The notes under the pieces are model-generated. The model made no database searches. It was not told the DNA's origin and worked only from the letters and a program-made list of their open reading frames with translations. Source: Escherichia phage hz69. From it: 42,991 nt of DNA. Where the stretch lies: sequence record ON556632.1; one strand, written 5' to 3'. Made by a program: the position numbers and the translations under genes. Of this stretch, positions 42,548 to 42,930 are shown one piece after another. Positions within the stretch are counted from its first letter, which is position 1. Each line of letters opens with the position of its first letter.

Positions 42548-42629
42548 GAGATTCATTGAAAATGGTTACGTTGCCGTTGGGATTCTTCAGGGAGGGTTGT
42601 GCCTTTATTCTTATTACTTTGTAACTAAA

Positions 42630-42650
42630 GGGCAGGCCTTAAGCCTGCCC
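42630..42650. other. perfect 8-bp GC hairpin GGGCAGGC-CTTAA-GCCTGCCC in non-coding region
   Basis: Terminator-like or structural element; flanked by AT-rich sequence. Confidence 0.45.
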
Positions 42651-42701
42651 AATAATCGTTACATTTTTACGGTTGCGAATCTACGGCACTTTAAGAAAAT
42701 C

Positions 42702-42764
42702 AGATACTTAAGATATATTCCGCCGATTGGAATAGAGCTTGCCCAGGGCAACCGGAGATACTTA
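42702..42764. repeat. iteron-like direct repeats AGATACTTA (42702-42710, 42756-42764) flanking palindrome TTGCCCAGGGCAA (42739-42751)
   Basis: Exact 9-bp repeat twice, 54 bp apart, with a 13-bp palindrome between; a third AGATAC at 42875-42880. Confidence 0.45.
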
Positions 42765-42930
42765 GGAAGGAAAGTTACGATAATTCGAATGTTCAGTAAA
42801 CTGCCGCCTAACACTTCGCGTTGGGCGCTCGTTTTCGGCGGGTTTTACAAGGTGAACAAGAATCAAAGTAACTAAGATACAGAAGCACCTTAAACGAAGA
42901 TTTCCATAATGTCAATAGGTGCGATTATGT

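Follow-up and report, generated by a model that had tools for sequence, protein, structure and literature searches.

A predicted leftward unit for a structured RNA at the divergence point of the transcription arms in a Kagunavirus genome

Sequence comparison and structure prediction indicate, with a probability that we put at roughly 60%, that the intergenic region between the two gene arms of this Kagunavirus genome is a leftward transcription unit for a functional structured non-coding RNA of ~255 nt. A leftward RNA gene is the most likely explanation of the region, ahead of a replication origin or a packaging site. In the proposed mechanism, host RNA polymerase would start at a sigma-70 promoter, TTGACA-17-TAAGGT (42915-42887, called P_nc here), transcribe a 100-nt hairpin domain and then a nearly invariant central part, and stop at a GC hairpin followed by UUUAGUU (42650-42623). 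The hairpins, palindrome and repeats that a preliminary description had listed separately between positions 42548 and 42930 would then be parts of one RNA. The predicted unit stands at the head of the 31-kb leftward arm and is swapped among related phages together with the HTH_17 and winged-helix genes.

Genomic setting and the predicted promoter-terminator bracket

The window, which is the whole stretch of DNA that was analyzed (42,991 bp), is a complete Kagunavirus genome (Guernseyvirinae). Its end is 97% identical to Escherichia phage K1ind1, whose record was deposited as circular, and its further relatives are Salmonella Jerseyviruses. Because the window ends at the RBS of a gene with its ATG at base 1, the intergenic region was defined as 42485-42991. 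A row of small leftward genes lies to the left of this region, and a rightward operon encoding an HTH_17 protein, a 77-aa protein and a helicase-primase lies to the right. On the K1ind1 map the leftward arm, ~31 kb long, carries early small genes followed by lysis, terminase, head and tail genes, and the replication genes form the rightward arm. Since both arms start here, the region is the divergence point of leftward and rightward transcription. For comparison the region was taken from ~40 viral and nine metagenome contigs and from several GenBank records. The database collection that was searched contains 361 records with this region, which is unannotated in most of the records listed and occasionally carries a promoter, a terminator or a "hypothetical protein". 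Coordinates of all features are collected in Table 1.

Table 1. Features of the intergenic region and of the adjoining rightward operon, in window coordinates.
Feature	Position	Strand	Basis or remark
Predicted non-coding RNA, ~255 nt	42623-42880	-	promoter-terminator bracket and fold
P_nc, -35 hexamer TTGACA	42910-42915	-	unchanged in every type A sequence, in both genera
P_nc, -10 hexamer TAAGGT	42887-42892	-	17-nt spacer; predicted start near 42880
AAGTAACTAAGATAC, candidate protein-binding site at the transcription start	42866-42880	.	recurs in allele B
5' domain, 100-nt irregular hairpin	42773-42873	-	compensatory changes, fold
5' domain, stems	42868-73/42773-78; 42860-65/42781-86; 42853-58/42790-95; 42844-48/42796-800	-	
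5' domain, tip	42837-41/42804-08	-	"second GC stem-loop" of the preliminary description
Nearly invariant central part	42699-42772	-	both AGATACTTA copies, CU-rich unpaired stretch, palindrome hairpin
Predicted intrinsic terminator	42623-42663	-	stem-loop 42650-42630 and U-run UUUAGUU 42629-42623
Conserved block GTTACGTTGCCGTTG...	42565-42587	.	between terminator and leftward-gene promoter
Promoter of leftward genes, TTGCAC-17-TACTAT	42519-42547	-	one of 7 similar promoters in the genome
Promoter of HTH / winged-helix / helicase-primase operon, TTGATT-17-TATACT	42931-42959	+	hexamers invariant in both genera
111-aa ORF, GTG start	42540-42875	+	mechanical ORF list
HTH_17 protein, 56 aa	1-171	+	Pfam HTH_17
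Winged-helix protein gp77, 77 aa	168-401	+	AlphaFold model, pLDDT 89.6
Helicase-primase, 752 aa	460-2718	+	

The preliminary description had reported a perfect hairpin, two exact repeats, a palindrome and a second GC stem-loop between divergent promoters, and each of these was recovered. The 8-bp hairpin GGGCAGGC-CTTAA-GCCTGCCC is present at 42630-42650, the two AGATACTTA repeats lie 54 bp apart at 42702 and 42756 with no further copy in the genome, the 13-bp palindrome TTGCCCAGGGCAA occupies 42739-42751, and a GC stem was found at ~42804-42841. The two flanking promoters, one leftward and one rightward, hold up as well. When the 383 bp were shuffled 1000 times, the 8-bp hairpin was borderline (P ~0.05) and both the palindrome (P ~0.19) and the 9-nt direct repeat (P ~0.23) were within chance, so that the single sequence lends no support to the label "iteron-like" that the repeats had been given. 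We take the listed features to be real because they are conserved and undergo compensatory change in relatives. A third promoter, P_nc, which reads leftward from the right edge of the region, had been overlooked.

By the criteria for sigma-70 promoters, P_nc is a predicted promoter. Its -10 hexamer is weak, with three of six consensus matches, and it was not listed by the promoter scan. Both hexamers and the 17-nt spacing are kept across Kagunavirus and Jerseyvirus, the -10 reading TAAGTT in the Jerseyviruses, and the spacer sequence differs. P_nc and the HTH operon's rightward promoter are arranged back-to-back, and an RpoD-type promoter is annotated at the same position, on the minus strand, in Salmonella phage AG11. 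A leftward promoter of the form TTGAC[AT]-16/17-TAnnnT is present in three of the alleles described below (A, B and C), with a chance expectation that we estimate at ~0.01 per allele. A -10-like TATCTT just past the P_nc start is not conserved in the Jerseyviruses. At the start itself lies the candidate protein-binding site AAGTAACTAAGATAC, which may be an operator. Allele B, otherwise unrelated, has an inverted copy of it between its two promoters, with a single mismatch.

The hairpin at 42630-42650, a GC-rich stem of 8-9 pairs followed by a U-run, is a predicted Rho-independent terminator. Hairpin and U-run occur in this order on the minus strand only, and a terminator was flagged on that strand alone; the U-run is short and interrupted. 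An outer stem, GUUACA/UGUAAC, pairs 42663-58 with 42625-20. Pairing of the terminator stem is preserved by a CG to UA double change in the Jerseyviruses and also in a second terminator type with the stem GGGTGGGC/GCCCACCC, and the U-run is on the minus strand in both types. The terminator module is absent from three Jerseyviruses (L026-L028), in which termination would be non-essential because the module is missing. Because promoter and terminator bracket the interval from ~42880 to 42623, we predict a leftward transcript of ~255 nt. The preliminary description had suggested a short rightward transcript ending at the hairpin; our results favor a transcript with its end at the hairpin, but one that would run leftward and be longer.

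Downstream of the terminator, the leftward genes have a promoter of their own in every allele. The genome has seven promoters of this type, where 0.04 would be expected; each faces a gene with an RBS, and all seven bear the palindrome AATAG-N4-CTATT (here at 42518-42531). The GTTACGTTGCCGTTG... block that precedes it is kept in Kagunavirus alleles A-D and in most Jerseyviruses, and is absent from the three that lack the terminator module.

Conserved RNA fold and cassette exchange

Folding of the minus strand gave -77.4 kcal/mol (z = -4.5) with identical minimum-energy and centroid structures, and folding of the plus strand gave z = -3.2. An alignment of 24 distinct sequences yielded a consensus structure of 46 pairs, of which 99.5% are standard, compared to 30-50% after the partners are displaced by 1-3 columns. 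Double changes are found in four pairs (23 cells), a level reached by none of 500 shuffles. In the 5' domain, the outer stem is AGUUAC/GUAACU, and the middle stem changes from UGUUCA/UGAACA in Kagunavirus to GUUUCA/UGAAAC in Jerseyvirus with pairing intact. The same domain shows a G-C to A-U change and one A-U pair that becomes G.U or G-C in Jerseyviruses, and its tip is occupied by at least five unrelated sequences, each of which forms a stem. Within the central part, the AGATACTTA copies (42702-10 and 42756-64) read UAAGUAUCU in the RNA, and the palindrome becomes a small hairpin in whose stem a U-A pair changes to U.G on the minus strand in eight Jerseyviruses.

The compensatory changes come from few independent lineages, chiefly the split between Kagunavirus and Jerseyvirus. 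A single-stranded DNA hairpin would produce similar covariation.

The proposed strand rests mainly on the promoter and terminator, with the pattern of G.U pairs as support. For allele A, 57 cells are G.U on the minus strand (A.C on the plus strand) and 4 are the other way, a count that is biased by the structure having been predicted on the minus strand. For allele B, whose structure was likewise predicted on the minus strand, the corresponding cells number 40 and 1. Consensus folding energies barely separate the strands for allele A (-35.7 for minus and -34.8 for plus) and differ more clearly for allele B (-62.8 and -57.4).

At least four non-homologous alleles (A-D) exist at this site. Alleles B, C and D occur in sister Kagunaviruses, and from ~42588 to the HTH gene their sequences do not align with the window. 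Every allele contains a leftward promoter, a strongly folding stretch of 220-290 nt and a minus-strand terminator. The leftward promoters read TTGACT-17-TAAGCT in allele B, TTGACA-16-TAAAAT in allele C and TTGAAA-18-TATAAT in allele D, and allele B has a structured RNA of its own with 57 pairs. For allele D, the published annotation of phage fBC-Eco01 is in independent agreement, with a host promoter and a terminator marked on the minus strand at precisely the corresponding positions.

A segment-by-segment table of identities showed that the RNA, both promoters, the HTH gene and the 77-aa gene are exchanged as one unit. The leftward-gene promoter and the helicase-primase are 83-91% identical regardless of allele. 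This non-coding DNA has diverged less between the two genera than the helicase gene has: identity is 89-95% in the terminator module, 81-82% in the core and 64-73% in the helicase-primase. The gp77 product of the exchanged unit has a generic winged-helix fold. We considered a relation to T4 MotA and set it aside, as the best PDB match, the MotA N-terminal domain, was too weak (E = 0.005).

No stretch of the window reached the gathering threshold of an Rfam 15 family; the only two sub-threshold matches fell over the terminator, with 21 and 18 bits where 70 and 79 were required. Judged by gathering or by E-value cut-offs, neither the window nor alleles B-D had a usable Rfam match, and no tRNA or tmRNA genes were found. 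Similar sequence was absent from 5,426 complete E. coli genomes, and the sole match in bacterial genome contigs was a Jerseyvirus contig inside a Taishania assembly, where the context is the same. A scan of viral contigs with a 15-nt core pattern was uninformative, with mostly chance matches. An antisense scan of the phage produced only 10-12-nt matches (35 ten-mers against ~20 expected, with overlaps counted separately), among which there was no meaningful trans-RNA target. An 8-nt match between the CU-rich stretch and the helicase-primase RBS does not track the RNA allele and was attributed to chance. Our literature search found no study of the region, origin or non-coding RNAs of these phages, and the sole RNA-seq paper on a Kagunavirus reports genes only (PMC12645636).

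Alternative explanations for the region

The preliminary description had also proposed a replication origin, and the location of the region directly upstream of the HTH, winged-helix and helicase-primase genes, together with its exchange along with two small DNA-binding proteins, agrees with that proposal. In such a DNA-level origin, the palindrome and the AG(A/T)TAC motifs would be bound by the two small DNA-binding proteins encoded alongside, and hairpins extruded from melted DNA would signal to the helicase-primase where to enter or to prime. The leftward promoter might contribute a transcript that opens the origin or primes it, by analogy with T7, T4 and ColE1. We consider this unlikely. 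AGWTAC does occur six times in 498 bp (0.57 expected) and is enriched in every allele, but two of the six sites pair with each other as the outer stem of the 5' hairpin, and another is part of the terminator's outer stem. The modeled winged-helix fold of gp77 would suit a DNA binder, and the alleles do co-vary with the adjacent HTH and winged-helix genes, which linkage alone could account for; they do not co-vary with the helicase-primase, its C-terminal part included. Although the cumulative GC skew reaches its minimum at the region, the switch in skew coincides with the switch in gene orientation and is not independent evidence. The expected sequence elements are also missing: the longest repeat is in two copies only (9-12 nt, 54 bp apart, equaled in 23% of shuffles) rather than in three or more phased direct repeats, no exact DnaA box was found in the region and its two one-mismatch sites sit within promoters, and A+T content peaks at 80% in one 30-nt window with no extended AT-rich block. 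Nor does a DNA origin need a promoter-to-terminator layout or a G.U strand bias. As a separate origin mark we considered TGTTCACC, which we take to be the P4 origin iteron, and rejected it; the motif occurs once in the region, as an arm of an RNA stem, and has four copies in the genome.

It is similarly improbable that the region is an ordinary control region in which the RNA itself has no function. On that account P_nc would serve the leftward genes as an additional promoter, farther upstream and with a long leader; the hairpin would terminate transcription in part or act as an insulator, and phage regulators would bind the conserved blocks as operators. The leftward genes do follow in the same orientation, the genome-wide promoter/operator palindrome adjoins, and some Jerseyviruses are missing the terminator module; the sharing of AAGTAACTAAGATAC by unrelated alleles at different promoter-relative positions also fits a DNA operator. 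Operators, however, leave unexplained why stems spanning 60-100 nt are kept by compensatory change while their tips are repeatedly replaced. Further arguments against a mere control region are the minus-strand folds of two independent alleles and the promoter that the leftward genes already have past the terminator in every allele. A packaging (pac) site recognized by terminase, another suggestion of the preliminary description, is the least credible of the alternatives. It would fit the weak similarity of the 56-aa HTH protein to the DNA-binding domain of small terminases (PHROG 57) and the fact that the GenBank records of phages dunkel and blauehaus were opened inside the region, but these two starts are 24 bp apart and the sequence is continuous across the ends, with no repeat. 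On the K1ind1 map ~6 kb separate the region from the terminase genes, and for the related Kagunavirus fBC-Eco01 a PhageTerm analysis gave no obvious termini (PMC9825357). Hardly more probable is a small encoded protein, from either the 111-aa plus-strand ORF or a short minus-strand ORF. These reading frames exist mechanically, but in several close relatives only 0-79 aa of the 111-aa ORF are left, and Pfam and PHROG returned no match for it, in line with the earlier judgment that no credible ORF is present. The minus-strand frames are without an RBS, and minus-strand differences between the genera are mostly non-synonymous, with no codon-like pattern by eye in the alignment.

Possible roles of the RNA and comparison with known systems

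With promoter, terminator, conserved fold and cassette structure all found in silico, we infer that the leftward RNA has a function, and we rank a role in cis ahead of a role in trans. By analogy with known phage leaders, the RNA might tentatively be seen as a cis-acting leader; polymerase would then stop at the terminator after making a short RNA, except where the RNA itself or the cassette proteins permit read-through into the leftward arm. We favor the cis role because the unit always keeps the same position and orientation, and because the three Jerseyviruses without the terminator module must read through. A trans-acting regulatory RNA appears less likely than this. More speculative still is a wider interpretation, in which the region is a swappable control cassette of the Guernseyvirinae that combines a ~250-nt structured RNA as effector (an antiterminator, or an origin primer or activator) with two DNA-binding proteins and comes in at least four unrelated RNA versions. 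The RNA variants could then be antiterminators, protein-independent or protein-assisted, that license the 31-kb lysis and morphogenesis arm, or structured origin primers or activators. If this effector-cassette interpretation is true, the alleles would divide co-infecting phages into specificity groups.

Jerseyviruses and Kagunaviruses rank with the most frequently isolated phages of Salmonella and E. coli and are used in biocontrol and therapy. An RNA unit placed where the transcription arms diverge is a strong candidate for a switch that times gene expression or starts replication. The modular exchange of RNA and regulators would also be relevant to engineering therapeutic phages and to predicting recombination between them.

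Several known systems resemble parts of this arrangement. RSF1010 oriV is an iteron origin with the priming hairpins ssiA and ssiB and a RepA-type helicase. The phage helicase domain is likewise of the RepA/AAA_25 type, and two hairpins flank the central conserved block; unlike RSF1010, the region has no array of 20-bp iterons, and both of its hairpins fold better on the same (minus) strand. Transcription-dependent origins include the T7 primary origin, T4 oriF and oriG, and ColE1 RNA II. The T7 origin is the subject of PMC8373140. The likeness would lie in a promoter beside replication genes, with a transcript that opens the origin or primes it; in ColE1 the fold of the RNA matters as well. 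However, the T7, T4 and ColE1 origins work without a terminator and depend on a segment that is AT-rich or forms a hybrid, whereas the predicted RNA here is ended by a terminator and the region has no clear unwinding element.

The put RNAs of phage HK022 are cis-acting processive antiterminators of ~70 nt with two stem-loops, and they need no phage protein. As with put, a structured RNA would begin just past a sigma-70 promoter and precede a terminator and a long operon. In contrast to put, the predicted RNA is ~255 nt long, with a 100-nt hairpin and other domains, it has no Rfam match, and antitermination by it is putative. In phage lambda, the pR' promoter at the head of the late operon gives rise to the 6S RNA of ~200 nt, which ends at the intrinsic terminator tR', and in lambdoid phages the pR'-tR' unit exists as interchangeable alleles linked to a neighboring regulator gene. 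The Kagunavirus unit shares with lambda a short terminated transcript, here an in silico prediction, that heads the arm of lysis, terminase and structural genes. It differs in that the neighboring genes are divergent rather than upstream and the downstream genes have their own promoter, and a scan of the two cassette proteins gave no Q-family match in Pfam or PHROG. Moreover, the fold is conserved and covarying here, and the lambda 6S RNA is not known to need one. As a kind of element, a phage structured non-coding RNA with its own promoter and terminator is already known; this RNA matches no described RNA family, and its role may be less ordinary.

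Sequence elements of the intergenic region and terminator-like hairpins

The predicted RNA start site coincides with AAGTAACTAAGATAC. An inverted copy of this element, differing at one position, occurs in allele B, one of the non-homologous versions of the region (L014); it lies ~90-105 bp ahead of the start of the HTH gene, with the two divergent promoters on either side. The window allele and allele B are otherwise unrelated, and the element may be a protein-binding site common to both. A 12-nt part of it was also found elsewhere in the window (see table). Some Kagunaviruses (L009, L010) have a small additional ORF (MVTLTEEQLEKLL...) between the rightward HTH promoter and the HTH gene.

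With the terminator on one side and the leftward gene promoter on the other lies CGTTGCCGTTG, which comprises two CGTTG copies 6 bp apart and is kept in Kagunavirus alleles A-D and most Jerseyvirus sequences; it is missing in three Jerseyviruses (L026-L028) that lack that module. Immediately upstream of the -35 element of the same promoter is a 10-nt insertion, ATTCATTGAA, shared only with the relative L042.

The L009 equivalent of the terminator hairpin at 42630-42650 has the same stem and an inverted loop, with TTAAG rather than CTTAA on the plus strand, a pattern characteristic of a flipped hairpin. Another terminator-like hairpin is located within the leftward arm, with small early genes on either side, and would be a further obstacle for any read-through mechanism to pass.

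Coordinates of features in the window, with window equivalents for database record ends
Feature	Position	Strand	Detail
77-aa protein gene	168-401	+	gp77
Cro/CI-like HTH_3 gene	2736-2951	-	
AATAG-N4-CTATT promoter palindromes	3026, 5464, 9120, 21776, 30672	+	
AATAG-N4-CTATT promoter palindromes	41109, 42518	-	
Partial AAGTAACTAAGATAC match	36878	+	12 nt
Terminator-like hairpin	41387-41408	-	9-pair stem, then TCATTTTT
ATTCATTGAA insertion	42548-42557		
CGTTGCCGTTG	42569-42579		
AAGTAACTAAGATAC	42866-42880		predicted RNA start site
NC_073173 record end	42692		phage blauehaus
NC_073201 record end	42716		phage dunkel

Database records and the 77-aa protein

The GenBank records for phages dunkel and blauehaus both end inside the region, 24 bp apart; no terminal repeat was present at either end, and the sequence is continuous across them. 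Two matching places were found in 17 of the 361 database records with the region, and these may be further records split there. A 19-kb scaffold in a Taishania pollutisoli assembly (L180, NZ_JACVEL010000022) is a Jerseyvirus-like phage with the locus layout of the window, probably representing contamination.

Other records label the 77-aa protein 'UvsX-like' or 'replication protein'. These labels appear unfounded: the protein was modelled as a winged helix (pLDDT 89.6), and its top PDB match, at E = 0.005, was to MotA, a transcription factor of T4, in the N-terminal domain.

Palindrome-bearing promoters

Seven sigma-70-like promoters in the window carry AATAG-N4-CTATT in the spacer and -10 region, compared to 0.04 expected, and three of them are near-identical 25-mers. 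The copy adjoining the region is identical across all intergenic alleles, so the binder is probably neither gp77 nor the HTH protein, both of which are swapped. A candidate for encoding the binder is the Cro/CI-like HTH_3 gene, and the palindrome at 3026 sits upstream of this gene itself. No RNA polymerase gene was noticed in the annotation of the close relative K1ind1. The palindrome fits the 'phage promoter' consensus published for fBC-Eco01 (PMC9825357).
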